NCBI GenBank assembly: GCA_024239035.1
Contig: JANBVK010000001.1
Coordinates: 171,010 to 235,009, forward strand
DNA from: Patescibacteria group bacterium
GTDB lineage: Bacteria > Patescibacteriota > Minisyncoccia > UBA6257 > GWB1-50-10
Direction: 5' to 3'
Length of the DNA stretch: 64,000 bases
Numbering within the stretch: the stretch's first letter is position 1; each line of letters opens with the position of its first letter. The translations under genes and the position numbers were made by a program. The notes under the pieces are model-generated. The model saw only the letters and a list, made by a program, of their open reading frames with translations, did not search any database and was not told the DNA's origin. This document shows positions 2,188 to 21,176 of the stretch, in pieces.

Positions 2188-3954
2188 CTATACTATCTCG
2201 CTCTGATAGCATTGCTCGCAATAAACGACCTCTTTCCTCTCTGGGGCGTAACTTGTTTCAAACTCATTGGGGCACCTCCCTTCCAGATGATGGATATGTT
2301 TCGCGGTATTTTCGCGCACTTTGTAATCACATACGCATTGTCTGTGCCAAAGTTTAAGAGGGTTTCGCATTGCAAATCGTTCCTTATAACGGCAGTTTTC
2401 GCATTTCCTAGGAAGCGCTATCTTTCTCATTCGCAGGAAATCAAGTTCTAGTTTCACTATTCGATACGCGCGTCCACAATCATTACAACCGATCACTTCT
2501 TTAATAATCGAGTCCTCTACGTCTTTTATATCCATAGGTAATTGCGATGACTGCATTGTAGGCGTATAAGGATACTTGTCTGGTTCTCGCCATGAATATC
2601 CCTTTCTTTCAGCCTGCTCTTTTGTAAGAGGCATATATTCCTGGGCAATTGTTTCGTTGTACGCATATAAGCTCAATCCAATTGGAAAAAATTCGCCGTA
2701 TTTATACACACATCCTGTTTTATCAGTATATGGCTTGTCATTCATATGCTCTTTAATTTTAGCTACGAGGGCACCATACTCTTCTTTAGAGTATTGCTTA
2801 TTAAAAATACAATATTCCTTTTTCCTCACACCCGAGCAGCCGAACATGTTGGTAGAATTAAGACACCAATACGCATAGTTACTATCCCTTGTTGCCTCAC
2901 CAAACATGGAAAAAAGAGTCTTATAGCATCCGAAGCCTCCAGCCATGAATTCGTACATTAATTCAGATGTCGCACAGCCAAACATGTCGTAAATCTCTTT
3001 AGCGCCAATTATCCTCGAACTATACTTAATGTTTTCCGATTCATACGCATCAAAAGTGAAATGGGCGTTTTTTGAATTTTCAATATTATCCCCTGTGCAA
3101 TTTATAGTTTTTGTGAAATTAGCGAACTTGTGAAGAGAAGATCTTATAAGCTTCTTGAATTCCTTTTTTAACTCTTGAAACTGGTTATGATTCCCCATGC
3201 TGATTTTATTTATCTCTTTTGAATATTCTTCTTTCGAGCACCGCCTATTTCTAAAAACATAACGTTGATTTCTCAAATTCGAGCTCATGAAACAATTTTG
3301 GCACCCCGAGCAGTCAAAAAGATATGCCGACTCGATGCATTCTCTTGAACGTAACGTAAAACTTGTCCTATTATTACGATCCCCGTCTATATTCTCGTAA
3401 ACCATTTCCGAACCTTCAATATTAAAACTATCAAAGCAGGTCTTGTCTTTGTCCATAAAGCGAGAGTAATATACGTCCTCACTTTCCAATACCGAGTACG
3501 AAAGGTATATGTTCTTGTTGTCAGCAATGAAATTTGCGTAATCTGAATTAATATTTGTATGATATTGTGCAATGGCAATTTGAGGAACTCTCACCAGCAG
3601 TTCTCTATATTGCTGAAAAAACGGCTTATCCCAATTGTATTCCACGCCATATTCAAGCGGATCCCACTTGTCGGAAAACCAACATTCACGGCAATAAACC
3701 TTATACGGTTTATCCGGCGAATACATTGAAATTATAGACTTACCACAAAGGTCACATGAGTCCTTATACAAAGTCCTCTCGTTTCTTACTGCCATACGTC
3801 TCTGTTGTCGGCAGTCCGGACAAAATGTCGGCGGTGGAACACTAATCTTCTCGTAAAACGAGAAGTCATCCGGTTCAATAGTGAACTGGTTTTTACAATT
3901 TTGACAGGTCGGAGATGCTGAGTCTTGTCGAAGTGTTTTGGTTTCGGTATTCAT
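2188..3954 (-). CDS. Cys-rich multi-zinc-ribbon paralog (copy 3); the core is Cys-depleted relative to its siblings
   Basis: The ORF track starts at 3975, but the conserved MNTETKTLRQDSASPTCQNC start is at 3954, in an ATGA overlap with the stop of copy 4. The termini match the family. The core has about half the Cys count of copy 2. Confidence 0.75.
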   Translation of the reverse strand: MNTETKTLRQDSASPTCQNCKNQFTIEPDDFSFYEKISVPPPTFCPDCRQQRRMAVRNERTLYKDSCDLCGKSIISMYSPDKPYKVYCRECWFSDKWDPLEYGVEYNWDKPFFQQYRELLVRVPQIAIAQYHTNINSDYANFIADNKNIYLSYSVLESEDVYYSRFMDKDKTCFDSFNIEGSEMVYENIDGDRNNRTSFTLRSRECIESAYLFDCSGCQNCFMSSNLRNQRYVFRNRRCSKEEYSKEINKISMGNHNQFQELKKEFKKLIRSSLHKFANFTKTINCTGDNIENSKNAHFTFDAYESENIKYSSRIIGAKEIYDMFGCATSELMYEFMAGGFGCYKTLFSMFGEATRDSNYAYWCLNSTNMFGCSGVRKKEYCIFNKQYSKEEYGALVAKIKEHMNDKPYTDKTGCVYKYGEFFPIGLSLYAYNETIAQEYMPLTKEQAERKGYSWREPDKYPYTPTMQSSQLPMDIKDVEDSIIKEVIGCNDCGRAYRIVKLELDFLRMRKIALPRKCENCRYKERFAMRNPLKLWHRQCVCDYKVRENTAKHIHHLEGRCPNEFETSYAPERKEVVYCEQCYQSEIV

Positions 3955-5651
3955 ATCACTTCCTTTTGATAACACTTCTCACAATAAACTATTTCCTTTT
4001 TCTCTGGAGCGTAACCCGTCTTAATTTCCTGACCGCATTTGGCGCATTTACGGTCCCACAGGCGCGGCGGATTGACACGACTCATCCGCTCCATGTGCCT
4101 GCAATCCGGACACTTCCTCGGTAAAGGGAATTCAAACCTGCGAAGCAGATCGAGTTCCGAACGCACTACGCGATATGCTTTTTTACAATCCATACATTCC
4201 AAAACTTCCTGAAGAATAGAATCCGTAACGTCATTGATGCTGTCGGGCATTTTTTCAGATAGTAATGTAATCTTATGCTCAGCCGGCGTTGGTTCGTGCC
4301 ACCGCCAGCCTTTCTCTAGTATCTGCTCCTTCGACAACGGGTAATACTGGTGCGCCGTGGTTTCATTATAATCGAATAAGCTTAGATCGTACGGAATAAA
4401 TTCTCCATATTTCCATACTCTGCCCTTGCTATCAACGTACGGACGCTCATTCATATCCTGAATGATTTTCCCTCTGAGCCTGCTAAAAGATTCTTTGTCG
4501 TACTGCTTGTTTAAAATACAATACCGTTTCTTCTTTACGCAGACACAGCCGAATACATTTGAAGAGGAAACCGCGAACATAGAATACTCATTCTCTAGAG
4601 CGGTATCCCACGTTCCAAAACAAAACCGTATGGTATCAGCCCCTTCTCCAACGGTGATAGAATCACACACACGCTGCACGCCATTCCCCCATTCACTGAG
4701 GTCATAAATATCCTTCGCCGGCTTCAAAGTCATAAACTGACAAAACTTCCCGTCTTCAACAAATCGAGTTTGGTACATATAGTGCGCATTCTTACACTCA
4801 TACACATAGTCTCCGGAAACGTTCACGTTATGAAACCCGTGTATAAATTTACGCGGAAATTTCTCCCAGAAAGTATGGGTTTTTTTCTTCTCTTCTATAA
4901 GAAAGGTATGTGAATCCAACTTTAATGCTTTTAATTTTTCCTCATACTCCTCTTTTGGGTACGGTTTATTGAATATATGATAGTTCTTGTTCCGCAGATT
5001 AACACAGCCAAAACAGTTGTTGCATCCAATGAGACTCTTCGAGAAATATACATCACTGCAACCACTGCAGTCTTCAGAAAAAAACGTCCGGTAACATTTC
5101 CGGCAGTTGATCACTTGATAACATAACTCTGACTCGTCAAGGATAAGCGCGTCCATGGAATCCTTGTCATAATTTACCGTCGTACCATAGAGAACGTTCT
5201 CGCAGTGGTCTGAGTTGAAAATAAGATAACAGTTTTTCGCATACCCTGCGTGGTTTACGTACTCACTATTTACGAGGGTGCTATATCCGGTGACCAAGCT
5301 CATATGCGGCACTTTTCTCTGAACTTCCTTAACCTGCTCAAAGAAATTCCGGCCGGAATCATACTCCATCGCATAATCATCAGAATCCCACTTATCAGAC
5401 CACCAGCACGGCTGGCAGTAAACCGTGTAGGGCTTATCCGGAGAAAAAATAGAAACCACGCTCTTACCGCATAAATCGCACTTACGTTTGTAAAAAACCC
5501 GTTCGTTGCGAAATATCAAACGCCGCTGAAACCTGCACTCCGGACAAAACGTCGGCGCTGGAACGTTCATTTTCTTATAAAAATCAAAATCTTCTGATTC
5601 AATCGTGAACTCCTTCTTACAATTTTGACATTTCTTAACTTCTTGATTCAT
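3951..5651 (-). CDS. Cys-rich multi-zinc-ribbon paralog (copy 4)
   Basis: 566-aa ORF beginning MNQEVKKCQNCKKEFTIESEDFDFYKKMNVPAPTFCPECR. It has the family core and C-terminal zinc ribbons. Confidence 0.8.
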   Translation of the reverse strand: MNQEVKKCQNCKKEFTIESEDFDFYKKMNVPAPTFCPECRFQRRLIFRNERVFYKRKCDLCGKSVVSIFSPDKPYTVYCQPCWWSDKWDSDDYAMEYDSGRNFFEQVKEVQRKVPHMSLVTGYSTLVNSEYVNHAGYAKNCYLIFNSDHCENVLYGTTVNYDKDSMDALILDESELCYQVINCRKCYRTFFSEDCSGCSDVYFSKSLIGCNNCFGCVNLRNKNYHIFNKPYPKEEYEEKLKALKLDSHTFLIEEKKKTHTFWEKFPRKFIHGFHNVNVSGDYVYECKNAHYMYQTRFVEDGKFCQFMTLKPAKDIYDLSEWGNGVQRVCDSITVGEGADTIRFCFGTWDTALENEYSMFAVSSSNVFGCVCVKKKRYCILNKQYDKESFSRLRGKIIQDMNERPYVDSKGRVWKYGEFIPYDLSLFDYNETTAHQYYPLSKEQILEKGWRWHEPTPAEHKITLLSEKMPDSINDVTDSILQEVLECMDCKKAYRVVRSELDLLRRFEFPLPRKCPDCRHMERMSRVNPPRLWDRKCAKCGQEIKTGYAPEKKEIVYCEKCYQKEVI

Positions 5652-5659: not shown

Positions 5660-7450
5660 CTATACCACCTCTGCGTTGTAACACTGTTCACAGTACACAA
5701 TCTCTTTCCTCTCCGGTGCATATGATGTCTCAAACTCATTGGGACACCTACTTTTACCATGGAAGTGTTCTGTGGTGTTTTCATATCTTGTAGCTTGCCC
5801 TGAGCCTGTCGAAGGGTCACACACGCACTGGCGATGCCAGAGTTTTCGCGGCGGACGCAGGGCAATTTTATTAAGGTAGCGACAGTGGGGACATAATCGG
5901 GGAATTGGTATTTTTTCCCTGCGATATAAATCAAATTCAGAACGTATAATGTTGTAATTTCTCTTGCACTTAACACACATAAGAACTTCATTCACAATAG
6001 AGTCCTCTACATCTTCTATTTTGTCAGGGATATCGTTCGGCTTCACTGTTTCCTTACCAAACGTGCCGGGAACCTGATCTTCCCATCTCCATCCCCTTTT
6101 CATTACTTCTTCTTTGCTAAGCGGCATGTAGATTTGCCCCTGTGTTTCGTTATAACCAAACGGAGAAATCTTTGCAGGGAAAAATTCCCCAAACTCTCCC
6201 GTCTCACTCATGTGCGCAATAATTTTACGTTTCAGCTCCTTATACTCCTCTTCGTTATAACGCTTGTTAAAAATTGAATATTTCCCTTGTTTCACCCCAA
6301 CACAACCGAATAAATTCTCGCTATTGTGGCAACTATCACAGTACATAATATGAGAATCATCATAACTCAGATTCGTGAACAATACGTTATAATCTCTAAT
6401 TAGTGCATGGCATTCATAAATTAATTCACAATTAAACCCAAAATGATACGAATCCATGCACTCCTTGGAATCAATGGCGACAATCAAATATTTTGCATCC
6501 TCTATTCCACTCGCATCAAAAGAATGATGAATATTCTTCGAATTGAATATCATGTTACCGGTGGCATTTGCTGACTGCAAAATTACCGCGGCACGATGTA
6601 ATACGTTATCACGAATTATCGCAAGCCACTTCTCATAAAGCTTTACCCTGCTCTCATACGAGCTCAAATTAAATTCTTCTATTTTCTTCTGGTATTCCTC
6701 TTTAGTATAGGGCTTGTTCAAAATATGATACTGCTTATTGCGGAGATTGTATGAAAGAAAACAATTTGAACAACCGCGACAATCGTAGCAATAATAACAA
6801 TTCGTGCAACCCTCCAACAAAAAACCGTACTGACTTTGATAACATTTATATGAATTAATACATTCGTAAAGAAGTTCATTGCTCTCTTTTTCAATACGAT
6901 AACAATCAATGCAATCTCGCGCAGGAAATATATTAGTGGAATACATCACGTTTTCCGACCAGCCACAACCAAAGCACAAGTAACAATTCTTGTTATCCCA
7001 CGCGTGGTTTGTATATTCTGAATTAACGCTGTTTTTTGTAAGGAGCGCGATGCGAGGCACCTGTAACTGTAGCTCCTGCCACTGCCCAAAAAATGGGCGC
7101 GAGAAATCAAAATCCCGCCCGTATTCCAGCGCATCCCATTTATCACTCCACCAACAAGGCGGGCAATACACCTTAAACGGTTTGTTTAGAGAATATATTG
7201 TTACCGTGCTTTTGCCGCATAAATCACATCTGCGGCGATAGAGCACCCGCTCATTCCGCCACGCATAACGCCTCTGCTGCCGGCAGTCAGGGCACAAAGT
7301 CGGCGGCGGGACACTTATCTTCTCATAAAACGCGAAGTCATCCGGCTTGATGGTAAATTTTTGCTCACAGCTCCGGCATACCTGCACTGAGTTTTGTTGA
7401 AGTGTCGAAGATGCTGAGTCTTCTCGAAGTATTTTAATTTGATTCTCCAT
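5660..7450 (-). CDS. Cys-rich multi-zinc-ribbon paralog (copy 5) with a degenerate 2x N-terminal repeat and a C-terminal 36-nt insertion
   Basis: The likely start is MENQIKILREDSASSTLQQNSVQVC at 7450, in a TAATG overlap with the copy 6 stop. The C-terminus carries CDPSTGSGQATRY. Confidence 0.75.
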   Translation of the reverse strand: MENQIKILREDSASSTLQQNSVQVCRSCEQKFTIKPDDFAFYEKISVPPPTLCPDCRQQRRYAWRNERVLYRRRCDLCGKSTVTIYSLNKPFKVYCPPCWWSDKWDALEYGRDFDFSRPFFGQWQELQLQVPRIALLTKNSVNSEYTNHAWDNKNCYLCFGCGWSENVMYSTNIFPARDCIDCYRIEKESNELLYECINSYKCYQSQYGFLLEGCTNCYYCYDCRGCSNCFLSYNLRNKQYHILNKPYTKEEYQKKIEEFNLSSYESRVKLYEKWLAIIRDNVLHRAAVILQSANATGNMIFNSKNIHHSFDASGIEDAKYLIVAIDSKECMDSYHFGFNCELIYECHALIRDYNVLFTNLSYDDSHIMYCDSCHNSENLFGCVGVKQGKYSIFNKRYNEEEYKELKRKIIAHMSETGEFGEFFPAKISPFGYNETQGQIYMPLSKEEVMKRGWRWEDQVPGTFGKETVKPNDIPDKIEDVEDSIVNEVLMCVKCKRNYNIIRSEFDLYRREKIPIPRLCPHCRYLNKIALRPPRKLWHRQCVCDPSTGSGQATRYENTTEHFHGKSRCPNEFETSYAPERKEIVYCEQCYNAEVV

Positions 7451-9135
7451 TATCCTACTTCTTGAAGATAACATTTATCACAGAAGATTTTATGTTCTTT
7501 CTGTTCTTCCTGCGAATAAGAGGTTTGAAAACCAGCCCCACAGTTAGCACACGTTCCCGGCCAGAGCTGCCGTACATTTCTTGAGCCCATTCTTCTTTGA
7601 TGACGGCAATTAAAACATTCTCGCGGGAGGGGAAGCCCCACTTGTTTATAGAAATTAATTTCCGGTTGAATAAAACGGTAATTTCTGCCGCAGGCATCAC
7701 ACCTCAGAACTTGTTTTATTAAATCTCCCGAATATCCTTTCGGATTCGTCGGAAGTTCATCATGCGAAATAGTTTCCTGTCCGCTAGTTATAGGAATGTC
7801 TTCTTCCCAGCGAAATCCCTGCGCGAGCGCTTCTTTTTTCGCAAGCGGCATATATTCATTAACAATTGATTCATTGTAGGCGAACGCTGAAAGTTCCGGG
7901 GGGTGATACTCCCCCCACTCCCCCGTTTTCTTCATATACTCTATAATTTTCGACTTCAAAGATTCATATTCATCTTTGGAATACTGCTTGTTTAAAATGC
8001 AGTACTCCGCGCTTTTTAAGCCTACACAGCCAAAAATATTATGAGAGTTAAAACAATCTTCCGAATAATAGGCATCTGTAGAATTCACGCAATTCCGGGT
8101 AAAAAACTGTCGCATGCCTTGACCCGCGAGAACTTCGTAACACAGCTCCAAGTCGGGCGAAAAAGAAACATCATAGTCATCAACAGCTTTTCTGAGTGTG
8201 AAAACATATTTAGAATTCTCCCCGCTTTTTACGTCAAATGAATAATGGACGTTTTTAGAATTGTAAATATGGTTGCCGGAAACATCATTATTATGAGATC
8301 CAAAAAAGTATCTCTGCGGAAGTTTTTTCCTAAGACCCTGTTGTTTATTCAAAATTAGAGATATCGTCCTTGGGTCATGTAAAGGGTGTTCGGTCAGAAA
8401 CTTTTCGTATCCCTCCTTCCCAACATTTTCATTAAAAATATGGTAGGACTTCTGCTTCAAACCAACACAGCCTATGCATTGCGTACATCCTCGGCAGTCA
8501 TACAAGCCCACACTATCAGCGCAGTCCTCACACTCTTGTGAATAAAGAAGTCGATATGAACCCAAACAATCCACGCATTCATAACAGAGTTCCCCTTTAA
8601 ACATATAAAGATTGTCAAAACAATCCTTGGAATTCCACACTATATGCCCGTATGCACAATCCTCATCATCAACACAACCAAATACCAGATAACAATTCTT
8701 ACTCTCAAATGTAAGATTCGAATAGACGCAGTTCTCACTCCTTGTGTTCATAACCGCATAATGCGGGACCACTTTTTGCAACTCGGCAAATTGCAGAGAG
8801 AAAGGACGACTAAAATTAAAATCCCGCCCGTACTCCTTCGCGTCCCAGTCATCAGCCCACCATTCCTCATGGCTCCACACCGGAAACGGAGCCTTTTCGG
8901 AATACATTGATATCACTGATTTCCCAGACTTGTCGGATTTTCGCTTGTAGAGCGTCTTAAAATTTCTAAATAATATTCTCCTTCGCTGCCGACATTGGGG
9001 ACAATTCTTCGGCGGCGGAACGCTTATCTTCTCATAAAACGCGAAGTCGTCCGGTTCAATCACGAAAGACGTCCTACAGCTCTGACAAGTCGAAGACACT
9101 GAGTCTTGCCGAAGTGCTTTAGTTTCCTTATTCAT
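7450..9135 (-). CDS. Cys-rich multi-zinc-ribbon paralog (copy 6)
   Basis: 561-aa ORF beginning MNKETKALRQDSVSSTCQSC. The family architecture is present, with a divergent C-terminus CANCGAGFQTSYSQEEQKEHKIFCDKCYLQEV. Confidence 0.8.
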   Translation of the reverse strand: MNKETKALRQDSVSSTCQSCRTSFVIEPDDFAFYEKISVPPPKNCPQCRQRRRILFRNFKTLYKRKSDKSGKSVISMYSEKAPFPVWSHEEWWADDWDAKEYGRDFNFSRPFSLQFAELQKVVPHYAVMNTRSENCVYSNLTFESKNCYLVFGCVDDEDCAYGHIVWNSKDCFDNLYMFKGELCYECVDCLGSYRLLYSQECEDCADSVGLYDCRGCTQCIGCVGLKQKSYHIFNENVGKEGYEKFLTEHPLHDPRTISLILNKQQGLRKKLPQRYFFGSHNNDVSGNHIYNSKNVHYSFDVKSGENSKYVFTLRKAVDDYDVSFSPDLELCYEVLAGQGMRQFFTRNCVNSTDAYYSEDCFNSHNIFGCVGLKSAEYCILNKQYSKDEYESLKSKIIEYMKKTGEWGEYHPPELSAFAYNESIVNEYMPLAKKEALAQGFRWEEDIPITSGQETISHDELPTNPKGYSGDLIKQVLRCDACGRNYRFIQPEINFYKQVGLPLPRECFNCRHQRRMGSRNVRQLWPGTCANCGAGFQTSYSQEEQKEHKIFCDKCYLQEVG

Positions 9136-9152
9136 ATTCTTGGTCGCGGAGT

Positions 9153-10628
9153 TTAGAAACCTCTCAAAAATTGCACAAGAAGCGCTACCGGTGCACCGGC
9201 TGCACCTTTTGCCAAATAATCACCTTCAATTGCAGTCATCCGCGGCGCAATATCAAGATGAACCCAATTATGACCTTTGATAAACTGCCAGAGAAATGCC
9301 GCACTCGTACTAACGCCTCCGGTGCGATTCTTGCCGGTTGTAGTATTTGCTACATCCCCGAACGTCCCTTTTATGTCCTCCTCATACTCTTCCCAAAGCG
9401 GCATAGGCCAGACAAAATCACCGGTGACCTCTCCGGCTATCCGCAATTTCTCACTCACCCTATCGTCGGTAGCAAAGAGAGCCGACGCGCGCTGGCCAAG
9501 AGCAACTACCGCTGAGCCTGTAAGCGTCGCAACGTCAATAACAAGCCGCGGCTTGTACCGCTTCGCATACTCCAGCGCATCGGCAAGTATCACCCTCCCC
9601 TCGGCATCGGTGTTTAAAACTTCAATTGTCTTGCCGGACATGGTGCGGAGAACGTCACCCGGGCGATAACTTGAGCCCGAAGGCATATTCTCGACCGCCG
9701 GGACAAGACCAATAATGTTTCTCTTTGACTTAAGCTTCGCAAGTGCAGCGAGCGTATGAATCACCGCCGCTCCACCCGACATATCCATATGCATCTCATA
9801 AATTCCCTCAGTCGGCTTCAAGTTCAACCCGCCGGTGTCAAACGTCACTCCCTTACCCACTAAAACCACGGGTTTCTCACTGCGCCTGCCTTTTAGGTAC
9901 TCCATAACGATAAAGCGAGGACGCTCGTCTGACCCGCGCGACACACCGAGCACACCCCCCATTTTCAGTTTGCGGATCGCCCTCTCATCTAAAACTTTTA
10001 CTTTAAACCCTGCACTGCGGCCGGCCCGCCGCGCGGCATCAGCAAGTTTTGATGGAGTCATATCCCCACCGGGAGTATTTGAGAGAATTCTTGTGTGATT
10101 AATCTCTTCTCCTACAACTTTCCCGCGTCTAAGTGCTGCTTTAATCTTCACGCTCCTCCCGGATGAAATAATTTGGACCGCATTTACAAAAAACCAACCC
10201 TCTTTCGGTTTAGTCTTATACTTAACAAACTCAAAATTAGCGATCTCAATCTGTGTCGCAAGCATCTCAGCCACGGACTCACGTAAAATACCCGATTCTT
10301 TAACCAGAAAATCATCTAAATACAGGGCAAGATTACCAATCTTCTCGCGCCGGGCGAGTGTCACCACCTGCCGCATTGTACGCAGCGCCCTTCGGTGATT
10401 AAATCCTTCTGGGACGCTAATCACTAAAACCCGCCTCCCGCGGGACAACAAAAGCACATGACTCTCATTCCCTTCCTGCTTAGCGTTACTTTTAAGAAAG
10501 CGTAGGTTCACTTGGTCCTCTTTTGAGAGCGTTTTAAAAAACGGATGCAATTCAATTTTTTGCTTATCTCTTAAAACAAAAACAGGAGCGGTCTGCCGTG
10601 AAAATTCTTTGGTGTGTATTATTTTCAT
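9153..10628 (-). CDS. pepA: Leucyl aminopeptidase, M17 family
   Basis: 491 aa carrying the M17 signature NTDAEGRVILADALEYA plus VGKGVTFDTGG and the surrounding LAP catalytic-domain conservation. The gene is visibly more GC-rich than the flanking paralogs. Confidence 0.9.
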   Translation of the reverse strand: MKIIHTKEFSRQTAPVFVLRDKQKIELHPFFKTLSKEDQVNLRFLKSNAKQEGNESHVLLLSRGRRVLVISVPEGFNHRRALRTMRQVVTLARREKIGNLALYLDDFLVKESGILRESVAEMLATQIEIANFEFVKYKTKPKEGWFFVNAVQIISSGRSVKIKAALRRGKVVGEEINHTRILSNTPGGDMTPSKLADAARRAGRSAGFKVKVLDERAIRKLKMGGVLGVSRGSDERPRFIVMEYLKGRRSEKPVVLVGKGVTFDTGGLNLKPTEGIYEMHMDMSGGAAVIHTLAALAKLKSKRNIIGLVPAVENMPSGSSYRPGDVLRTMSGKTIEVLNTDAEGRVILADALEYAKRYKPRLVIDVATLTGSAVVALGQRASALFATDDRVSEKLRIAGEVTGDFVWPMPLWEEYEEDIKGTFGDVANTTTGKNRTGGVSTSAAFLWQFIKGHNWVHLDIAPRMTAIEGDYLAKGAAGAPVALLVQFLRGF

Positions 10629-10633
10629 AAATC

Positions 10634-12328
10634 TTAGATAACTTCAGCTTGATAACACTTCTTGCATAATATGTATTCTACTTCCTCTTTAGGGTAATTG
10701 GTCTCAAACTCACTGCCGCACTTGGAGCACACTCGTTTAAAGACTCTTAAATTCTTCACCCATTGCTTGAACTTTTCATCAATGCGGCAGAAGGGACATT
10801 CTCTGGGCAGCGGCAGGTTCATCTTCCGTAAAAATTCAAGCTCCATCTGAATAATCTTAAATCCTTTACCGCACTTTTTGCAACTAATCACCTCTTTCAA
10901 AATATCATCGGGGGTATCCCGGATATGATCAGGTAGCTTGTCATGAGTTATTGTTATCACATACTGCCTCGACTCCAGTTCTCTCCATCGGTAACCTTCT
11001 TTCTCCGTCTGTTCACGAGAAAGTGGGAAAAAGTCATTCGCAACTGTCTCATTGTACGCAAATGGACTAAACTCAATAGGAAAAAACTCACCGTATTTAT
11101 AAACTCTTCCTTTCTTATCTGTGTATGGCATCTCTTCCATGTGCGCTACAATCCTTTCTCTTAACTTTTCAAATTCCTCCTTGGAGTATCGCTTGTTTAA
11201 AATGCAGTAATCACCTTTATTTATCGACACACAACCAAAATGATTTGATCCTGCAAGAGAAAGTTTAGAATATTCAGTGTCGTACAAACCAAGGCCCGCC
11301 TCTTGAGAAAATCTTACATTTGAAGCGTCTTCCCCAACCACACAGCATTCATATGCGAGGGTAAGATTATGTCCCCAGCTTGAAATATCGTAACAGTCTT
11401 TCATCGGCGGCTCTGTGATAGAAATAAATTTACAATCTTCGGCGCCAACTACTTCAAAGCACTCTTTACAGTTTTTTGATTGAAAAACATGGCTGCCGGT
11501 AGAGTTAATCGCAAACTCGTCCATTGTTGGTTTTGGCGGAAACATTTTCCAATGCTCCTCGGCGCGTTTCTGTAACTCTTTATATGTTTTGTAAGAACCC
11601 AAGTCCCACTTTCCGATCTCCTTGAAATACTCTTCTTTGGTATACGGTTTATTGAAAATGTGGTATTTCCTGCCTCGCAGGTTAGCTGATGCAAAACAGT
11701 TCTGGCAATTCATAGAATCTTTCAAGAACACGCAGTCAAGCGACTCTGTTACCTGGCTTCTCGTTCCAACACATCGGTTATTCTTATACGAATGCATCGA
11801 ATCATAACATAGCTCAGACGAATTAATTAAAGAACAGTCAAGTACTGATCTGTTGTGAGTTACTACCACGCCATAAGCGCAATCCTCATCGACATCAGCA
11901 TGAAAAAGAAGATAGCAGTTTTTAAGATGGCCGGCATGGTTGTTGTGGGGTGAGGTTGCAAGAGTCTCCAAACCAAGCGAGAGCCCCAGCATTGGCACTT
12001 CGTGCCAGAGTTCATTGAATTGTTCAAAAAACGGCCGCGAGAAATCATAATCACGCCCATATTCAAATGCGTCCCAATTATCCGACCACCAACAACGAGG
12101 ACAATACACGCGGTACGGGCTCTCTGGCGCATACATCGAAATCACATCTTTCCTACAAAGATCACAAGGGCGCTTATAAAGATTAATTAAATTAAAAAAC
12201 GCAAGCCGCCGTTGCAGACGGCATTTTGGACAAAACGTCGGCGCCGGAACGTTAATCTTTTGGTAAAAACTCTGGTCTTCGGTTGTGACCTCAAACTGTG
12301 TTTTACAATTTTGGCATTGTTTGGTCAT
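10634..12328 (-). CDS. Cys-rich multi-zinc-ribbon paralog (copy 7)
   Basis: 564-aa ORF beginning MTKQCQNCKTQFEVTTEDQSFYQKINVPAPTFCPKCR, with the family core and C-terminus. Confidence 0.8.
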   Translation of the reverse strand: MTKQCQNCKTQFEVTTEDQSFYQKINVPAPTFCPKCRLQRRLAFFNLINLYKRPCDLCRKDVISMYAPESPYRVYCPRCWWSDNWDAFEYGRDYDFSRPFFEQFNELWHEVPMLGLSLGLETLATSPHNNHAGHLKNCYLLFHADVDEDCAYGVVVTHNRSVLDCSLINSSELCYDSMHSYKNNRCVGTRSQVTESLDCVFLKDSMNCQNCFASANLRGRKYHIFNKPYTKEEYFKEIGKWDLGSYKTYKELQKRAEEHWKMFPPKPTMDEFAINSTGSHVFQSKNCKECFEVVGAEDCKFISITEPPMKDCYDISSWGHNLTLAYECCVVGEDASNVRFSQEAGLGLYDTEYSKLSLAGSNHFGCVSINKGDYCILNKRYSKEEFEKLRERIVAHMEEMPYTDKKGRVYKYGEFFPIEFSPFAYNETVANDFFPLSREQTEKEGYRWRELESRQYVITITHDKLPDHIRDTPDDILKEVISCKKCGKGFKIIQMELEFLRKMNLPLPRECPFCRIDEKFKQWVKNLRVFKRVCSKCGSEFETNYPKEEVEYILCKKCYQAEVI

Positions 12329-12447
12329 ACGATTTTTTTGCTGTGCCCGTCCGTAGCCTTGGGCGAAGGAGGGTAAAAATCAAAATCCTCCGGTTCGATC
12401 TGAAAAACTGATTTACAATTCTGACAATTTCTAGTTTCGCTATTCAT
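12325..12447 (-). pseudogene. Orphan N-terminal fragment of the paralog family (40 codons), out of frame with copy 7; its stop overlaps the copy 7 ATG
   Basis: Reverse-complement translation from the ATG at 12447 gives MNSETRNCQNCKSVFQIEPEDFDFYPPSPKATDGHSKKIV*. The first 25 aa match the family N-terminal zinc ribbon and the remainder is junk. It is below the ORF-track length cutoff. Confidence 0.45.
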
Positions 12448-12474
12448 AGTCTTAGTCTGAGGTGGTATGACATG

Positions 12475-14244
12475 TTATACCACCTCCGTGTTATAGCAGG
12501 TCTCACAATACACAATCTCCTTCCTCTCCGGTGCGTATGATGTCTCAAACTCATTGGGACACCTGCCCTCTGGGTGATGAGAATGTTTTGTGGTGTTTTT
12601 ATATCTTGTAGCTTGCCCTGAGCCTGTCGAAGGGTCACAAAGGCACTGGCGGTGCCATAACCTATTCGGTCCGCGTGCATTGAATCGCCGCGCGTGCCGG
12701 CAATCGGGACAAAGACGGGGCAAAGGAATGTGCAGATTTCGGTAGAACGAAAACTCGTTTGATATAATCTTATAGTTTTTCTTGCAGTTAAGACAGACAA
12801 AAATCTCGCGCTTCACGTCCAGGTCGTGAACATCGTAAATAGAGTCAGGAACTTTATCCCACGAAATGGTTTCTTTACCAAAAGTACCTCTAGGATAATC
12901 TTCCCATTTGAATCCTTGCTTCAACGCTTCTTCTTTCAATAAAGGGAATTGTTCCTGAACGCATGCCTCATTGTATCCAAAAGTACTAAGCGGCGGCGGG
13001 AAAAATTCTCCATAAACGCCCTCTTTTTTCATATCTTCTATAATGGTTGTCTTTAGTTTCTCGAAAGTCCCTTTGTCATATTCTTTATTTAAAATGCAGT
13101 ACTGCCTCTTCCGCAAACCCGCTGAACCAAAGCAGTGCTGAGAATCATAACAGTACATGCAATATGTTAAAAAGCTGTTTCCCCAACATAAGCTGCAACA
13201 AATACATTGAGAGCTATTGAGTCCGGTATTTGTGGAATTATAGACCAATTCCGCTCCCCGACCAGCGGTGTCACAATCAACACAATCTTTGGCGTTTCGC
13301 CACACATGCACGCTGTATGCGCAATCTTCGGCGTCGTATGCGTGAAAACAGGAACGACAGTTTTTTACATTCTTGATATAATTTCCCGTTGTATTAGTTG
13401 CATTCACGATTTCAGCAAATTTTTGAGGTTGCGTAGCTGCAAATTTTTGAAATTCCTTGCGAAGTTTCTCCACACCGCTATACGTATCTAACTTTGCTGA
13501 TTCCAAAAATTCCCCGTATTCTTTCTTTGAAAGCGGTTTATTAAAAACATGATATTGCTTATTGCGAAGGTTTACGCACCCTATACAATTTGATGAACCA
13601 CGACAATCAAGGAGAAAATAACTCTCGTTTGAATCATGACAACCCTTGCTGTAGAAAAGTTTGTACGAATTATAACAATCGTCGGACTCATAAGAGAGCT
13701 CAGTTTGGTGAGCAAATGAAACGTCAACGCAACTTTTACAGACTTGTATCCAATAACAGTGGGTGCAGTCTTCGTTGTTGGAAGATTCAACAATCATGTA
13801 GCAATTCTTGTTATCCGCAGAGATATTAATGTATTCCGAATTAACGCTTCGCACATGAATGAGGGCTACTTTAGGAACGACTTTCCACAATTCATGAAAC
13901 TGCTCAAAAAAGGGCTTTCCTGAAATATAATTGCGCCCATAATCTCTTGGGTCCCAATCGTCCGAGAACCAGCAGTCATGACACCACACGGTGTATGGCT
14001 TGTTAGGATTATACATTGAGACAATATCTTTCTTACAACGATCACATGGACGTTTATAAAACACTCTCTCGTTCCGGAACGCTAAGCGCCTCTGCGCACG
14101 GCACAAGGGGCACATCTGCGGTACTAGAGTCCCTATTTTCTTATAAAACGAAAGATCATCCGGTTGGATGATGAATTGACTTCTACAGTTTTGGCAGGCC
14201 TGCGCTGAGCTTTGTCGAAGTATTTTATTTTCCGCCTTTTTCAT
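12475..14244 (-). CDS. Cys-rich multi-zinc-ribbon paralog (copy 8) with the C-terminal 36-nt insertion
   Basis: 589-aa ORF beginning MKKAENKILRQSSAQACQNC. The C-terminus carries CDPSTGSGQATRYKNTTKH...NEFETSYAPERKEIVYCETCY. Confidence 0.8.
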   Translation of the reverse strand: MKKAENKILRQSSAQACQNCRSQFIIQPDDLSFYKKIGTLVPQMCPLCRAQRRLAFRNERVFYKRPCDRCKKDIVSMYNPNKPYTVWCHDCWFSDDWDPRDYGRNYISGKPFFEQFHELWKVVPKVALIHVRSVNSEYINISADNKNCYMIVESSNNEDCTHCYWIQVCKSCVDVSFAHQTELSYESDDCYNSYKLFYSKGCHDSNESYFLLDCRGSSNCIGCVNLRNKQYHVFNKPLSKKEYGEFLESAKLDTYSGVEKLRKEFQKFAATQPQKFAEIVNATNTTGNYIKNVKNCRSCFHAYDAEDCAYSVHVWRNAKDCVDCDTAGRGAELVYNSTNTGLNSSQCICCSLCWGNSFLTYCMYCYDSQHCFGSAGLRKRQYCILNKEYDKGTFEKLKTTIIEDMKKEGVYGEFFPPPLSTFGYNEACVQEQFPLLKEEALKQGFKWEDYPRGTFGKETISWDKVPDSIYDVHDLDVKREIFVCLNCKKNYKIISNEFSFYRNLHIPLPRLCPDCRHARRFNARGPNRLWHRQCLCDPSTGSGQATRYKNTTKHSHHPEGRCPNEFETSYAPERKEIVYCETCYNTEVV

Positions 14245-14248
14245 AAAC

Positions 14249-15901
14249 TTATGATATCTGAGTTTGATAACAGTCTGTACACATAACTTTCCGGTAACCC
14301 CACTTCCGAGGATAGAAGTGATTAACTTTCCTGGAACAAAAGATGCACGATCCCCGGTAAGACTTTAACACAGTGAGCGGCTTGAACCGTTCACGTGTTC
14401 GCCAGTCAGGATGATGACGTGGAAGAGGAATTCCGTGCTCCTTATAAAAAGCGAGTTCGTGGCGAGCTATATTAAAGCGCCAGCCGGTTTCAGGACAGAT
14501 AATTGCCTGCGCAGTTATATCATCTCCTACGTTATCAATTCTATCCGGCAGGTCATCCCCGCTTATTCCCTCATAAGCTGTTTCCCGAACATCATCCCAT
14601 CGCCCTCCAATTTTCTCAATATCCTCTTTAGTTTTAGGGAAATACCATTGGGCAAGAGTTAAATTATATCCTGAATACGCAAACGAATATGGAAGAAACA
14701 ATCCCCATTCACCTCTCTGCTTCATCTGTTCTTTAATTTTTGATGTGAGTTTTGCATACTCATCTTCGGTATACTGCTTGTTTAAAATACAATGCTTTTT
14801 CTTTCTTAATCCCACACAGCCAAAACAGTTCTCACAATCCTCACAATAATCTAAATATGCCGAGTGGCGACAATTCGAGCACCACACGTTTACAATTGCA
14901 TCATAATAGGTAATCCCTATACTCATCGCACTCTTTTCTGCCCTGCCAATACCGACAGAATCAATCACATCCTTGTTTTCTAATCCCCTGAATACATATC
15001 TGCAATTCTCTGATTTTTCTAAAAAGTAACACGAGAAACAATCTTTACACTCATTGATAAAGTTTCCGATGGAATTAGTAACTTTAACGTTAAAATTTTC
15101 TCTATGTACGGCCTCTCTCGCCGTAATATCGCTGAACTCTTTCTTGAGTTCTTGAACCTTCTTATATGAATGAGTGTCAAACTTCTTAAGTTCTTCAAAA
15201 TATTTCTCCTTGGAATACGGTTTGTTGAGAATATGATATTGCTTATTTCTCAAATTCCAGCACATAAAACAGTTCTGGACATTGCGACAGTCATAAAGGA
15301 ACATACTCTCCATACAATTTCTAGCATCAAAGGCGTATTTCACCCTGTAGCACTTAAAACAGTAGAGACAATCATAAGACAACTCTGAGTCGAAACAGTA
15401 GGCAAGATCAATTGAATTTTTGCACCCAAAAGCGCGATAGCTATAGCTCAAATATTCACTGCCTATCATTGCTCGACACAAATAGCAGTCCCTACATTCC
15501 CATATGTCGTCACACCAATCACAATTTACGTTCTTTACCCCCTGCTGATGGGGGTGTGGAACACTGGAACGCAACTCCCCAAATTGTTCAAGGAAAGAAC
15601 GTGAAAAATCATATTCTTTTCCATAATCCGTCGGATCCCAGGCATCAGACACCCATTCATTCCGGGCATAAATAGGAAATCCAGCACTCTCCGGTAGTAC
15701 CGTAATTATTGTCTTCCCGCTCAAATCAGACTTTGTTTTTCGAAACTTTCCGAATGTCCAGAAAGCTAACTGATGTCTCCAGCGACACCTCCGGCACTCC
15801 TTTGAGGGAGGAGTGCCTATTTTCTTATACAGGTTAAAATCCTCCGGTCTGATAGTGAACCGCCGCTCACAACTTTTACAAGTTTTAATCTCAGCTATCA
15901 T
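14249..15901 (-). CDS. Cys-rich multi-zinc-ribbon paralog (copy 9, divergent)
   Basis: 550-aa ORF beginning MIAEIKTCKSCERRFTIRPEDFNLYKKIGTPPSKECRRCR. It has the conserved NCFMCWNLRNKQYHILNKPYSKEKY and CFGCVGLRKKKHCILNKQYTEDEY internal repeats. Its start shares an ATGA overlap with the copy 10 stop. Confidence 0.75.
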   Translation of the reverse strand: MIAEIKTCKSCERRFTIRPEDFNLYKKIGTPPSKECRRCRWRHQLAFWTFGKFRKTKSDLSGKTIITVLPESAGFPIYARNEWVSDAWDPTDYGKEYDFSRSFLEQFGELRSSVPHPHQQGVKNVNCDWCDDIWECRDCYLCRAMIGSEYLSYSYRAFGCKNSIDLAYCFDSELSYDCLYCFKCYRVKYAFDARNCMESMFLYDCRNVQNCFMCWNLRNKQYHILNKPYSKEKYFEELKKFDTHSYKKVQELKKEFSDITAREAVHRENFNVKVTNSIGNFINECKDCFSCYFLEKSENCRYVFRGLENKDVIDSVGIGRAEKSAMSIGITYYDAIVNVWCSNCRHSAYLDYCEDCENCFGCVGLRKKKHCILNKQYTEDEYAKLTSKIKEQMKQRGEWGLFLPYSFAYSGYNLTLAQWYFPKTKEDIEKIGGRWDDVRETAYEGISGDDLPDRIDNVGDDITAQAIICPETGWRFNIARHELAFYKEHGIPLPRHHPDWRTRERFKPLTVLKSYRGSCIFCSRKVNHFYPRKWGYRKVMCTDCYQTQIS

Positions 15902-17694
15902 ATTACTTCACTTTGATAACATTGTTCGCAGTATACAATCTCTCTCCTTTCTGGAGCATAACTTGTCTCAAATTCATTGGGACACCTGCCTTCCAGGTGA
16001 TGATCATGCTTCGTGATATTCTTATATCTTGTAGCTTGCCCTGAGCCTGTCGAAGGGTCGCATACGCACCGGCGATGATACAACTTACTCTTATTTCTCT
16101 GGGCAACCCTCGCATTGTGCCTACAGTCCACACACGTCCGGGGCGCAGAAATCTTTTCTACACGCAGGAAATCAAGTTCCGGTTTAATGAGCCGATACGC
16201 CCTTTTACAATCACTGCACCGAATAATCTCCTTTAAAATACTATCCTGAATATCGTTTATGGAGTCGGGTATATCTTCCGATTTCATCGTAATCTCATAC
16301 TCCCGCGATGACGGTTCCTGCCATTTATATCCTTCTTCCTCTGCCTGTTCTTTCGTCAACGGAAAATGCTCGTTGGCAATGGTTTGATTGTAACCAAAAG
16401 GAGAAAGTTCTATGGGGAAAAACTCACCGTATTTATAGATCCTTCCTTTTTTATCAATATATGGCTTTTCACCCATTTGCTTCTTAATTCTCTCTACCAG
16501 CATTTCATACTCCTCTTTAGAATATTCTTTGTTTAAAATACAATGTTGCTTTTTACGCAAACCAACGCAACCGAATAAATTTGATGCCGAATGACAATAT
16601 ATACAATATTCCATATCCCGAATGTCCGTCCATGACTCGACGCAGAACTTCACGTTAAACGTCCCCATACCGGTAACAGCATTCTCATACCCCAATTGAT
16701 TGTTCTGACCCCAAACCGTCACATCATAGCAGTCTTTATTGGGTGGAAACTGGTAATATTGAACATATTTTAAGTTTTCACCTTCTCTAACTAAGTAACT
16801 TTGGCGGACATTTTTAGAGTTGGTAACGTACTCACCGCTCACGTTAGTGTTTTTAATCCCTTGTAGATACTTATTGGGAAACTTCTTCCAAAACTCACTT
16901 ACACCCCCTTTCACCGCAGTAAGGCCGTTCCACGAATGCAAATTCATCCCCTTAATCTTTCTTTCATATTCCTCCTTGGAATAAGGAGTATTATAAATAT
17001 GATACTTTTTATTGCGGAGGTTAACACACCCAAAACAATCACTGCAACCTTTGCAATTCTTTGAAAACCACACGCCGTGACAGTCCTCGCACTGTGAAGA
17101 AAAGTGCGTTTGATAACAATTCTCCAGCCAGAACGAGTCATAGCAACGCTCACACCTACCGATATGTGAATTGTCAAAACAGTTCTTACAATTATCCACT
17201 CCGTTACCATAGGCACAATCTTCGTCCTTATTTGAGTTAAACATCAAATAGCAGTTTCTCAGATAGCCGGCATTGGCGCAATATTCGCTGTTTACCATAT
17301 TAAGCACTGAAAGATTAAATCTTGGTACCACTTTAGCAAGTTCGAAAAATTGTTCAAAAAAGGTTCGTGAAAAATCGTAATCCCTTCCGTAGGAGGTTGC
17401 ATCCCAATCATCAGCCCACCACTCTTTCTCTTCATATAAAGTAACTTCTGATTCCGGAGGATAGAGAGCTAAAATTTCCTTCCCGGATTTTGCGCTCTTT
17501 GTTCTAAAGAGTTTCCGCTCGTTGCGAGACGCAATCCTTCTCTGAAATCTACACTCCGGACAAAACGTCGGCGGCGGGACGCTGATTTTCTTGTAGAAAT
17601 CAAGGTCCTCCGGTTCGATGGTGAACTCTGTTTTACAGTTCTGGCAGGTCGAAGACACTGAGTCTTGTCGAAGTGTTTTGGTTTCAGTATTCAT
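15898..17694 (-). CDS. Cys-rich multi-zinc-ribbon paralog (copy 10) with the C-terminal 36-nt insertion
   Basis: The likely start is MNTETKTLRQDSVSSTCQNC at 17694, in an ATGA overlap with the copy 11 stop. The C-terminus carries CDPSTGSGQATRYKNITKH. Confidence 0.75.
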   Translation of the reverse strand: MNTETKTLRQDSVSSTCQNCKTEFTIEPEDLDFYKKISVPPPTFCPECRFQRRIASRNERKLFRTKSAKSGKEILALYPPESEVTLYEEKEWWADDWDATSYGRDYDFSRTFFEQFFELAKVVPRFNLSVLNMVNSEYCANAGYLRNCYLMFNSNKDEDCAYGNGVDNCKNCFDNSHIGRCERCYDSFWLENCYQTHFSSQCEDCHGVWFSKNCKGCSDCFGCVNLRNKKYHIYNTPYSKEEYERKIKGMNLHSWNGLTAVKGGVSEFWKKFPNKYLQGIKNTNVSGEYVTNSKNVRQSYLVREGENLKYVQYYQFPPNKDCYDVTVWGQNNQLGYENAVTGMGTFNVKFCVESWTDIRDMEYCIYCHSASNLFGCVGLRKKQHCILNKEYSKEEYEMLVERIKKQMGEKPYIDKKGRIYKYGEFFPIELSPFGYNQTIANEHFPLTKEQAEEEGYKWQEPSSREYEITMKSEDIPDSINDIQDSILKEIIRCSDCKRAYRLIKPELDFLRVEKISAPRTCVDCRHNARVAQRNKSKLYHRRCVCDPSTGSGQATRYKNITKHDHHLEGRCPNEFETSYAPERREIVYCEQCYQSEVI

Positions 17695-19436
17695 ACCACT
17701 TCCGCCTGATAGCACTCCTCACAATAGGGCTTGTAGCCATCAGTAGATTTATAACTGGAGTAAATTTCCTTGTTACAATTGTGACACTTTTCGGGGAAAA
17801 TCCGATAGTTGTTCAAAATGGCAAATCGATCAACTATCCTTTGGTAGGGATATCTGGTTGGGATAGGCAGTTTTTTTCTTCTGTAAAACTTGAGTTCGGA
17901 AGAAATAATCCGAAAGGGATAGCCGGTCTTCTCGCAAATAAGAGCTTTATTTACAATATCATCAGTGACATCTTTAATATCTTTTGGAATATCACGAACA
18001 GAAACCGTCTCCATTCCCTTGACATCAATATTGACTTCTTCTTGCCACAGAGCACCAAACTTCTCAATTTGCTCTTTATTTAACGGAAAGATGATCTGGG
18101 CCATCGAATCATTGTAGGCGAAGGTACTAAATTTCAAGGGGAAAAATTCTCCATACTCTCCCCTTTCTAAAAGCTTTGTTTTAATGTCATCAACTATTGC
18201 CCAATATTCATCCTCCTCATACTGTTTATTAAAAATACAATACTGTTTATTCTCTACACCGACACAAGCGAAACAATTAATGCAATGGAGACAATTTATC
18301 AAGTACTCCGATTCGATAATAAACTTTGAAGCGAAAGAAAACTTGACCCTTGAACCCTCGGAACCTACTCCTACTGTCTCATATAGTAATTCCGAACCAC
18401 CCGAAATGCTGTAGTCCATTGAATCTTTATTCCTAACGGTTATTTCAGCAAATCTGAGGTTCTCTGACTTCTCAGCGTGAAAAACGTTGTCACAATTCTT
18501 GCAGCTGGCAATTTGATTCCCAAACGAATTATGTGACTTATCAATTCTAGTAGCTCTGACGGGAGACTCCTTAACCAGATTCCAAAACTTAGCTTTATAG
18601 CCCTCGAGTAATTCCCTATCACCAAGGTAAATTTTCTTTCTCTCTTTTCTATATTCTTCTTCGGATAATTGTTTATTAAAAATACAATATTTCTTATTCC
18701 GAAGGTTAACACAGCCAAAGCAGTCACTGCAGTTACGGCAATCATAAATGAAGGCGCAATCTAAGCAATCATTTGAAAAGTAAGCATAATCACATCGGTA
18801 GCATTTCTTGGTAAGAACGCTTTCATAACACTGTTCACATTTCCAAATACTATAACAATCAATGCTGTCCCTGGAGTTAAAAACTGACATGCTATAAGAT
18901 ATATTCTCGGAACGCCAGCCTCCTGAGACATAGTAGCCATTTTTCAAATCTCTCCCTCCTAGGGTGTAGTCGCTGTTTATACAATAAGGATCACGAATAA
19001 TAGTGGGTTGAGGAACAACGCTTCTCAATTTTTCATAATAAGTATCAAAAAATGGCTCGCTAACCTCATATTCCTGGCCATATTTCAGGGGATCCCAGCC
19101 GGCTGACCGATAAAATTTAAAATCATATACGGTAAAATCTTTCACGGGCGAAACAAAAGAGACAACTTGCTCATCATGCCGGGGAGCATCACAGGACCGT
19201 TTATATAATTTAATAGTGTGTCCGAAGGTCAAACGTCTCTGCCGACGGCAGTTAGGACAGAGGGTGGGCGGGGGCACGCGGAGTAAATTATAAAACTCAA
19301 TATCCCTTTCTATTATTTCAAACTCTTTCAAACAATAAGGTGATTTCCCCGACCAAGCACATTTCCTGGTATGCGGCTTGATATCCTTCAATATCTCATC
19401 AAGCGCCCTGTCAAATTGTGGCGTTTTAGATATCAT
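17691..19436 (-). CDS. Cys-rich multi-zinc-ribbon paralog (copy 11, most divergent)
   Basis: 581 aa. The N-terminus KCAWSGKSPYCLKEFEIIERDIEFYNLLRVPPPTLCPNCRRQRR and the core motifs CSDCFGCVNLRNKKYCIFNKQLSEEEY and CINCFACVGVENKQYCIFNKQYEEDEY are retained. Confidence 0.75.
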   Translation of the reverse strand: MISKTPQFDRALDEILKDIKPHTRKCAWSGKSPYCLKEFEIIERDIEFYNLLRVPPPTLCPNCRRQRRLTFGHTIKLYKRSCDAPRHDEQVVSFVSPVKDFTVYDFKFYRSAGWDPLKYGQEYEVSEPFFDTYYEKLRSVVPQPTIIRDPYCINSDYTLGGRDLKNGYYVSGGWRSENISYSMSVFNSRDSIDCYSIWKCEQCYESVLTKKCYRCDYAYFSNDCLDCAFIYDCRNCSDCFGCVNLRNKKYCIFNKQLSEEEYRKERKKIYLGDRELLEGYKAKFWNLVKESPVRATRIDKSHNSFGNQIASCKNCDNVFHAEKSENLRFAEITVRNKDSMDYSISGGSELLYETVGVGSEGSRVKFSFASKFIIESEYLINCLHCINCFACVGVENKQYCIFNKQYEEDEYWAIVDDIKTKLLERGEYGEFFPLKFSTFAYNDSMAQIIFPLNKEQIEKFGALWQEEVNIDVKGMETVSVRDIPKDIKDVTDDIVNKALICEKTGYPFRIISSELKFYRRKKLPIPTRYPYQRIVDRFAILNNYRIFPEKCHNCNKEIYSSYKSTDGYKPYCEECYQAEVV

Positions 19437-21124: not shown

Positions 21125-21144
21125 ATGACCCTACTTTGAATCAT

Positions 21145-21176
21145 AAAGAATACTAGATTTAAATCTAGTATTCTTT
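21145..21176. promoter_or_regulatory. Perfect 32-bp palindrome (AAAGAATACTAGATTT|AAATCTAGTATTCTTT) 21 nt upstream of the array start codon. Candidate operator and/or terminator of the upstream ATPase gene
   Basis: The 16/16 inverted repeat is read from the sequence. On the minus-strand sense it overlaps a weak -35/-10 pair (TTTAAA ... TATGAT), followed by AGGG and then ATG. Confidence 0.45.

Follow-up and report, generated by a model that had tools for sequence, protein, structure and literature searches.

Three identical 36-nt patches in diverged tandem paralogs of a Patescibacteria genome, and the 24-nt sequence module at their core

Three paralogs from a tandem array of cysteine-rich proteins in a Patescibacteria group bacterium carry an identical 36-nt patch at the same C-terminal site. 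The patch is probably the product of an inserted sequence module, a compensated frameshift and subsequent copying of the finished patch from paralog to paralog. The array lies in a 64,000-nt stretch of contig JANBVK010000001.1 (assembly GCA_024239035.1, positions 171,010 to 235,009), here called the window, and positions are window coordinates unless another source is named. The module itself recurs far outside this genome, and the two layers of the patch, the module and the host sequence attached to it, have to be considered separately.

The patch ATATCTTGTAGCTTGCCCTGAGCCTGTCGAAGGGTC has three exact matches on the plus strand, at 5783-5818, 12601-12636 and 16024-16059, and no match across 100 shuffles. 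Its coding (minus) strand reads GACCCTTCGACAGGCTCAGGGCAAGCTACAAGATAT and translates to DPSTGSGQATRY. The patches lie in the minus-strand genes 5660-7450 (596 aa), 12475-14244 (589 aa) and 15898-17694 (598 aa counted from the ATG of MNTETK; the mechanical open reading frame (ORF) begins at a GTG, at 17715), and within them the 23-nt core CCTTCGACAGGCTCAGGGCAAGC occupies 5793-5815, 12611-12633 and 16034-16056, respectively. The original prediction of the same 36 nt in three paralogs with diverged flanks is borne out, except that its first coordinates (5784-5819) were off by one. The carrier proteins are 43-46% identical to each other, and the 150 nt upstream of the patches share 47-56% ungapped nucleotide identity, so the flanks are not identical over long distances. 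Among the 12 paralogs compared, the longest exact match of any pair is the patch (36-39 nt), and the runners-up are 28-29 nt. Only 37% of flank columns are identical in all three carriers, which gives a run of 36 such columns a probability of about 2e-16. These are also the only three canonical copies of the 24-mer in the window, every one of them in the Cys-rich family. Two other paralogs with a long C-terminal zinc-knuckle loop, 363-2135 and 2188-3954 (both on the minus strand), have the site empty and read DYKVYK and DYKVRE there, as had been noted from the sequence at the outset.

Orthologs of two of the carriers, supplied by a related genome in another sample, also have an empty site. L120 has about 91% nucleotide identity to 15898-17694 and the next gene, and reads GAC followed by TATAAGATATATAAGAAC (also given as GAC followed by TATAAGATATATAAG), encoding DYKIYKN. 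L138 is syntenic with the window and 92% identical at the nucleotide level to 12475-14244; its site reads GAT followed by TACAAGATCTATAAAAAT (also given as GAT followed by TACAAGATCTATAAA). Aligned to L138, the carrier 12475-14244 reads GAC, then the core, then TACAAGAT--ATAAAAAC, and all three carriers have the order GAC, CCTTCGACAGGCTCAGGGCAAGC, TACAAGATAT, AAR. The difference is thus a 23-nt insertion directly after the Asp codon GAY (24 nt if an ambiguous T is counted) and a 2-nt deletion 10 nt downstream that brings the gene back into frame; on balance, 21 nt are gained. The final 10 nt of the patch, TACAAGATAT, belong to the host and are now translated in a different frame, as TRY where the protein formerly had YKIY. 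The identical stretch is therefore 36 nt long, as first proposed, but the inserted length is not. A C-terminal insert is absent from 359 of 360 representative homologs, the sole carrier being the window's own protein. By this comparison of sequences the patch is recent, which agrees with the recent spread originally suggested.

The host-derived 10 nt also point to where the patch arose. TACAAGATAT equals the L138 sequence minus CT and shows one more change, T>C, relative to the L120 sequence, which makes the lineage of 12475-14244 the most parsimonious origin and 12601-12636 the most parsimonious site of the original insertion. The 23-24-nt module CCTTCGACAGGCTCAGGGCAAGC(T) would have been inserted right after GAY in that paralog, and the resulting frameshift would then have been mended by the downstream 2-nt loss, turning YK(I/V)Y into PSTGSGQA-TRY. 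The finished patch of 36-39 nt would have been copied to the homologous site of two further paralogs by short-tract non-reciprocal recombination (gene conversion), aided by locally conserved flanks that encode HRQCxC and KNTTKH. Insertion, deletion and shifted host sequence form the same compound signature in all three paralogs, and it is this exact sharing that argues for a single origin followed by patch copying. We infer this order of events, and likewise gene conversion as the copying mechanism together with its donor and direction.

Three independent site-specific insertions at TGYGAY/TAYAAR, each followed by its own frame-restoring 2-nt deletion, would be an unlikely alternative. The target GAY/TAY is common to the paralogs, and the base context before module instances is biased (G in 49% at -6, A or C in 68% at -5, C in 93% at -4), with nested copies placed after TTCGAC; the 2-nt loss also falls in an ATATAT or ATCTAT run that is a plausible slippage hot spot. 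However, the ancestral downstream DNA differed (TATAAGATATAT in L120, TACAAGATCTAT in L138), yet all carriers read TACAAGATAT. The empty orthologs L120 and L138 encode the same peptide, DYKIYKNTTKHSHHPEGRCPNEFETSY, with many synonymous differences, indicating that the ancestral DNA of the paralogs differed at the site, and three clean insertions could not have left the host-derived 10 nt identical in all three carriers. Independent events would also need the same deletion three times plus the extra T>C in 15898-17694, and 363-2135 and 2188-3954 offer the same target yet are empty.

A single insertion followed by copying has a counterpart in ectopic gene conversion among tandem paralogs, where a short identical tract with conserved borders is found in diverged genes and is absent in orthologs. 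Like such a tract, the patch is shared by paralogs, is absent from orthologs and contains host-derived sequence. It differs in that the tract is only 36-39 nt long, the divergence between donor and recipient is very high, and the rest of the carrier genes has not been homogenised, the next shared stretches being 28-29 nt. Over 20-25 nt the flanks are about 80-85% identical, and short-tract homeologous conversion is plausible on that basis. Several points weigh against an insertion followed by conversion. Conversion at such divergence is unusual, exact flank homology extends over about 9-11 nt, and no conversion event was directly observed. No local master copy was identified, the three canonical copies in the 64-kb window all belonging to this family. 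For the third carrier, 5660-7450, the best non-self homolog is 68% identical, so that its ancestral state is a deduction. Finally, mobility of the 24-mer is deduced from empty and filled sites and from its distribution, and the module has no target-site duplication, terminal inverted repeats, significant secondary structure or nearby transposase.

An old insert that predates the paralog duplications, its DNA frozen by constraint on the peptide or on a DNA or RNA signal, is very improbable. The 24-mer is base-exact across phyla, and this requires either sequence-level constraint or very recent spread. The 91-92% identical orthologs are empty, however, as are the 359 homologs mentioned above, which include outgroups, and the patch junction has no match in JGI metagenome contigs. 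The host-derived 10 nt are identical as well, and constraint on the module would not account for that.

The core reads CC(C)TTCGACA(A/G)GCTCAGGGCAAGC, also written CCCTTCGACA(A/G)GCTCAGGGCAAGC, and is best seen as a member of a family of tiny dispersed repeats that hardly varies across more than 15 phyla. When one genome per species was scanned, TCGACARGCTCAGGGCAAGC was found in at least 119 loci, compared with about two expected by chance in 596 Gb by our own estimate, so the motif is by no means confined to this array. Hosts include Acidobacteriota, Chloroflexota, Pseudomonadota (Alpha-, Beta- and Gammaproteobacteria), Desulfobacterota, Planctomycetota, Verrucomicrobiota, Bacteroidota, Cyanobacteriota, Actinomycetota, Gemmatimonadota, Nitrospinota, Methylomirabilota, Omnitrophota, Margulisbacteria and many Patescibacteria classes. 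In 126 distinct instances, positions -4 to -1 are C, C, C and T at 83-99%, and conservation collapses to near random at -5 and +1, so that the unit is exactly 24 nt long with sharp edges. It starts with CCCT and ends with AAGC (its reverse complement starts with GCTT), and the flanks of the instances are otherwise unrelated. Cultured hosts include Sphingopyxis granuli NBRC 100800, Chakrabartia godavariana, Citromicrobium bathyomarinum and Microcoleus sp., and 17 IMG/VR viral contigs contain the module. Near-copies also occur in unannotated intergenic plasmid DNA of cultured Moraxella osloensis, Sphingobium, Novosphingobium, Comamonas, Gloeothece PCC 7822 and Nostoc PCC 7120.

The source genome is a metagenome-assembled genome (MAG), as are most carriers of the motif, and this raises the question of an assembly or sequencing artefact such as a chimeric or adapter-like sequence. 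Such an origin is extremely improbable. The patch keeps the reading frame, through a compensated frameshift, in three genes that differ in their flanks, the motif is present both in cultured isolates and in finished plasmids (Sphingopyxis granuli NBRC 100800, Microcoleus, Moraxella osloensis, Gloeothece PCC 7822), and 24 nt is far below assembler k-mer sizes.

The module is found both inside genes and between them. In bacteria of the candidate phyla radiation (CPR) it is present in frame in PNPase (L083), GatB (L110) and GlyRS (L104), where it reads PSTSSGQA. Low-GC genomes supplied 22 coding instances, of which 19 run in the sense direction and 14 use the frame (P/H)STSSGQA. The Cys-rich family carries it elsewhere as well, in two tandem paralogs of Saccharibacteria (L117) with the motif at two other positions. 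In Microcoleus (L093) and Gloeothece (L141) the module is embedded in tandem heptamer repeats, and in Alphaproteobacteria and one Pseudomonadota MAG inverted copies 42-57 nt apart fill nearly every intergenic gap in an arrangement that resembles REP (repetitive extragenic palindromic) sequences and BIMEs (bacterial interspersed mosaic elements). Nested copies placed after TTCGAC, in a head-head-tail-tail order, occur in at least four phyla.

Acidobacteria provide a second case of empty and filled sites. There the module interrupts hairpin 1 of the Acido-Lenti-1 RNA (RF01687), and matches to this family occur both without the module (L086, 1770-1815) and with a clean 24-nt insertion (L046, L038 and L086). 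The module is thus not itself the Acido-Lenti-1 RNA, being inserted into it in these genomes, and an Rfam scan of window positions 1-22000 found no match to this or any other family. As the core is read in three frames and is present in non-coding RNA, the proposal that it behaves as a DNA-level motif holds. The suggested alternatives of gene conversion and a small insertion element are both supported, each for a different layer of the patch.

A hairpin had been considered as a possible feature of the motif, and none of significance was found: the 24-mer folds at -0.9 kcal/mol (z = +0.8 relative to shuffles), and its 60-nt local context likewise folds no better. About one in ten instances lies in the loop of a local hairpin, with stems of at least 6 in seven cases compared with 1.8 expected. 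Positions in RNA hairpin loops (Acido-Lenti-1) and in terminator-like palindromes are among the observations that would suit a functional cis-element, a DNA or mRNA binding or processing site recruited for co-regulation and recognised by a conserved host factor. Exact conservation in very different genomes and the sense-strand bias in coding regions (the 19 of 22 above) would fit this too. A cis-element is nevertheless quite unlikely to explain the patches, since the module itself matches no Rfam family and has no stable fold, its locations, in unrelated housekeeping proteins and in intergenic clusters, share no context, only 3 of the 14 paralogs carry it, and no candidate factor is known.

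The 24-mer may instead be a cross-phylum mobile module, inserted by trans-acting machinery without target-site duplication and with a preference for G(A/C)C sites and the sense strand, although we put this forward tentatively and with somewhat more doubt than belief. Its distribution suggests that it is mobile or horizontally spread. Candidates for the inserting machinery are a trans-acting enzyme on single-stranded DNA and an RNA intermediate; the G(A/C)C preference, sense bias, nesting and lack of target-site duplication are weak clues compatible with a single-strand or RNA-mediated process. For duplications of 2-5 nt, none stood out against shuffled partners, apart from one weak 3-nt signal (6 observed, 2.2 expected) under a single boundary definition. 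No Y1 or linked transposase was found among 20 neighbouring window genes, which are housekeeping genes (rpoBC, uvrABC, secDF and others), or at the high-copy locus L022, a search that did not extend to the ORFs at 53189-63993 or to whole genomes.

Other kinds of short repeat do not fit. The module is not a miniature inverted-repeat transposable element, as it has no terminal inverted repeats beyond CCCT/AGGG and no target-site duplication. Tandem copies (L023, L056 and L077) have constant spacing and constant spacer sequence, which rules out a CRISPR-like array. A DNA uptake sequence is rejected for the window genome, which has three canonical copies in 64 kb, in one gene family. Literature searches with the core DNA and with its peptides (STSSGQA, FDKLR, LRQAQ) turned up no description of the module; most subscription journals were not searchable, and a prior description is possible.

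The closest known kind of element is the small dispersed repeat (SDR) of cyanobacteria, set beside the module here by description and not by sequence. SDR1-8 of heterocystous cyanobacteria, reportedly described by Elhai et al. in 2008, are said to be 21-27 nt long and confined to one cyanobacterial subgroup. SDR4-6 reportedly have a common predicted secondary structure, and a trans-acting enzyme on single-stranded DNA or an RNA intermediate is said to have been proposed for the group. The module resembles these repeats in its size, its lack of coding capacity and of target-site duplication, its precise insertion sites, its contexts, which include hairpins and tandem heptamer repeats, its nesting, and the way in which mobility is deduced from empty and filled sites. 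As with SDRs, the size is small and the boundaries sharp, and homologous sites occur both empty and filled. Unlike SDRs, the 24-mer extends clearly beyond the cyanobacteria to more than 15 phyla, viral contigs and plasmids, is often translated in CPR housekeeping genes and has no predicted structure. Small dispersed repeats of cyanobacteria are mentioned in PMC3116915 and PMC4390886, the latter also citing the precise insertion of SDR5 into HIP1.

Rickettsia palindromic elements (PMC10969869) are similar in that they look selfish, reside in frame in unrelated proteins and are translated as fold-compatible extra surface segments. They are about 100-150 bp long, palindromic and found only in Rickettsia, whereas the module is 24 nt long, non-palindromic and cross-phylum, and the insertion in the window was out of frame and required a compensating deletion. 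The module is not a Rickettsia palindromic element: length, palindrome and host range all fail, and only translation is common to both. The REP, BIME and REPIN (REP doublet) elements (PMC3116915, PMC3733652) share with the module the inverted pairs 42-57 nt apart and the intergenic clusters seen in some Proteobacteria. The module, however, has no GTAG or CGTC tag (PMC3733652), its single unit is not an imperfect palindrome, and it is present inside genes. REP families are species-specific, whereas the module sequence is common to many phyla, and no REP-associated tyrosine transposase (RAYT) gene lies near any module copy examined. An assignment to REP or REPIN is rejected for want of a palindrome and of the GTAG/CGTC tag, and also because the window copies are all intragenic, with three canonical ones in 64 kb.

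A relative of the core occurs at the other end of the same proteins. TTCGACAAGGCTCAG, allowing at most two mismatches, has nine copies in the window compared with 0.06 expected, all on the minus strand and all in the stretch of a paralog that separates its start codon from its first CxxC. Six are single copies (2099-2113, 3918-3932, 7414-7428, 9099-9113, 14205-14219 and 17658-17672). The left-end paralog has a perfect 27-nt tandem repeat of ACTTCGACAAGGCTCAGCGTCTTCGAC at 226-308, on the minus strand, whose 3.1 copies encode (TLRQGSASS)x3 before a CQNC knuckle. A one-base indel separates TTCGACAAGGCTCAG from the C-terminal core, with LRQ instead of PST before it and the same frame (GS) after it. 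The resemblance first noted between the core and this N-terminal variable-number repeat unit is therefore real, but the different frame applies only before the indel. The exact 27-nt N-terminal form has no match in JGI metagenome contigs. Orthologs P0001 and P0121 lack the N-terminal motif, and P0122, which comes from a different genome and is orthologous to another paralog, has two units, so that the copy number of the tandem repeat is probably variable. Six homologs have THSTSS(G/V)Q(A/E/V) immediately upstream of the N-terminal CQNC. In our view the N-terminal motif stems from an earlier insertion of the core's family that has since diverged.

Some further matches to the core were seen in passing. 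An ungapped segment conserved in the Cys-rich family (consensus ...SKEEYxxLRxKII...) appears as SSFDKLR in L117 (5147-5162), P0114 and P0131, and the DNA encoding SSFDKLR matches the motif core CTTCGACAAGCTCAGG at 16 of 16 positions. This could be coincidence, patch conversion by the motif or a hint of the motif's origin. In the Saccharibacteria MAG L032 (about 5380-5460) the 24-mer directly adjoins a putative tRNA gene of the other strand, spotted by eye, and the flanks ACAGG...CCTGT are complementary. Pseudomonas LIT1-like phages (H33-H45), one cultured clade, have a 20-nt exact match, CCTTCGACAAGCTCAGGGCA, within a tail-fibre gene, which may be chance or a real insertion.

The Cys-rich family is uncharacterised and very large in Patescibacteria, with about 6,000-8,000 matches per query, and the carrier 5660-7450, a zinc-ribbon/beta-solenoid protein of this family, corresponds to P0241, which is 100% identical to NCBI KJI72_01010. 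Pfam and NCBIfam searches of the paralogs identified treble-clef zinc fingers at both ends and nothing else. The C-terminal finger has a short form, CxxC-x17-CxxC, and a long form in which the first knuckle is widened to CxC-D...HxH...C. The patch falls in the variable loop of this C-terminal knuckle, and the length of that loop differs widely among homologs. An AlphaFold model of 15898-17694, built from 80 homologs, has a mean predicted local distance difference test score (pLDDT) of 88 and a predicted template modelling score (pTM) of 0.90. At the insert, residues 547-557, the model shows a loop of low confidence, and pLDDT drops below 50 at 551-553. Because confidence falls at the insert in an otherwise confident model and loop length is variable, the insert peptide is predicted to be a tolerated hydrophilic surface loop, and we assign it no function. 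Comparison of the model with the PDB gave nothing significant, only weak left-handed beta-helix matches with E >1e-3.

The tandem array comprises 12 paralogs of about 550-600 aa at 1-21124, interrupted by a leucyl aminopeptidase gene at 9153-10628, and every gene of the region is on the minus strand. Following the contig leftward brings the total to 14, and the two additional paralogs lack the insert. In L120 the ortholog of 15898-17694 comes directly after a DUF87/TraG-like ATPase gene, and the window genes 17691-19436 and 19433-21124 have no counterparts there. L138 has a 2188-like gene next after its ortholog of 7450-9135, in the place where the window has 5660-7450 and 3951-5651. Judged from these gene orders, array membership appears to turn over quickly by gain and loss. 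The array adjoins a gene for a HerA/DUF87, VirD4/TrwB-like coupling ATPase and uncharacterised genes (21209-24652); the order is the same in the related genome for 23246-24652, whose L120 counterpart is a DUF8128 protein. The public gene calls of L139 start several paralogs (for example 12475-14244, 7450-9135 and the left-end one) past the first CxxC, at 546, 537 and 538 aa. These starts lose the N-terminal motif and a zinc knuckle and so are probably miscalled. Two sub-threshold Rfam matches in the window, to the L31-Firmicutes leader (23.5 bits, 14931-14960) and to mir-303 (26.8 bits, 21129-21191), are far below the gathering scores and most likely due to chance.

Large ORFs are nearly all on the minus strand across 1-64000 (57673-59169 and an overlapping ORF at 36789-37406 are the exceptions). 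GC skew of the plus strand is negative throughout the 64-kb window, at about -0.15. The whole window is probably one replication arm with genes co-oriented with replication, in which case the CCCTTCGAC strand of the motif would be the leading-strand sequence.

If the 24-mer is indeed a mobile module, it would be the smallest and most widely distributed mobile sequence in bacteria. A base-perfect 24 nt in otherwise unlike bacteria implies either a horizontally spreading element far smaller than mobility is believed to require or the recognition sequence of a very widespread factor. The presence of the module in cultured carriers (Moraxella osloensis, Sphingobium, Gloeothece and Microcoleus) makes the mechanism of insertion directly testable. 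The outcome would bear on the origins of mini-repeats and also on the annotation of spurious ORFs, since the peptides PSTSSGQA, LRQAQGK and FDKLRAS can come from module DNA.

For the CPR bacteria, it would bear on the many small insertions that their proteins acquire, and a mobile module would repeatedly supply their essential proteins with 8-residue loops (PSTSSGQA). The three paralogs of the window would then be a case caught in the act, in which the frameshift was repaired and the result copied among paralogs. They offer an unusually clean and datable example of the evolution of a protein loop, in which a tiny insertion with a compensated frameshift would have spread among ancient paralogs.

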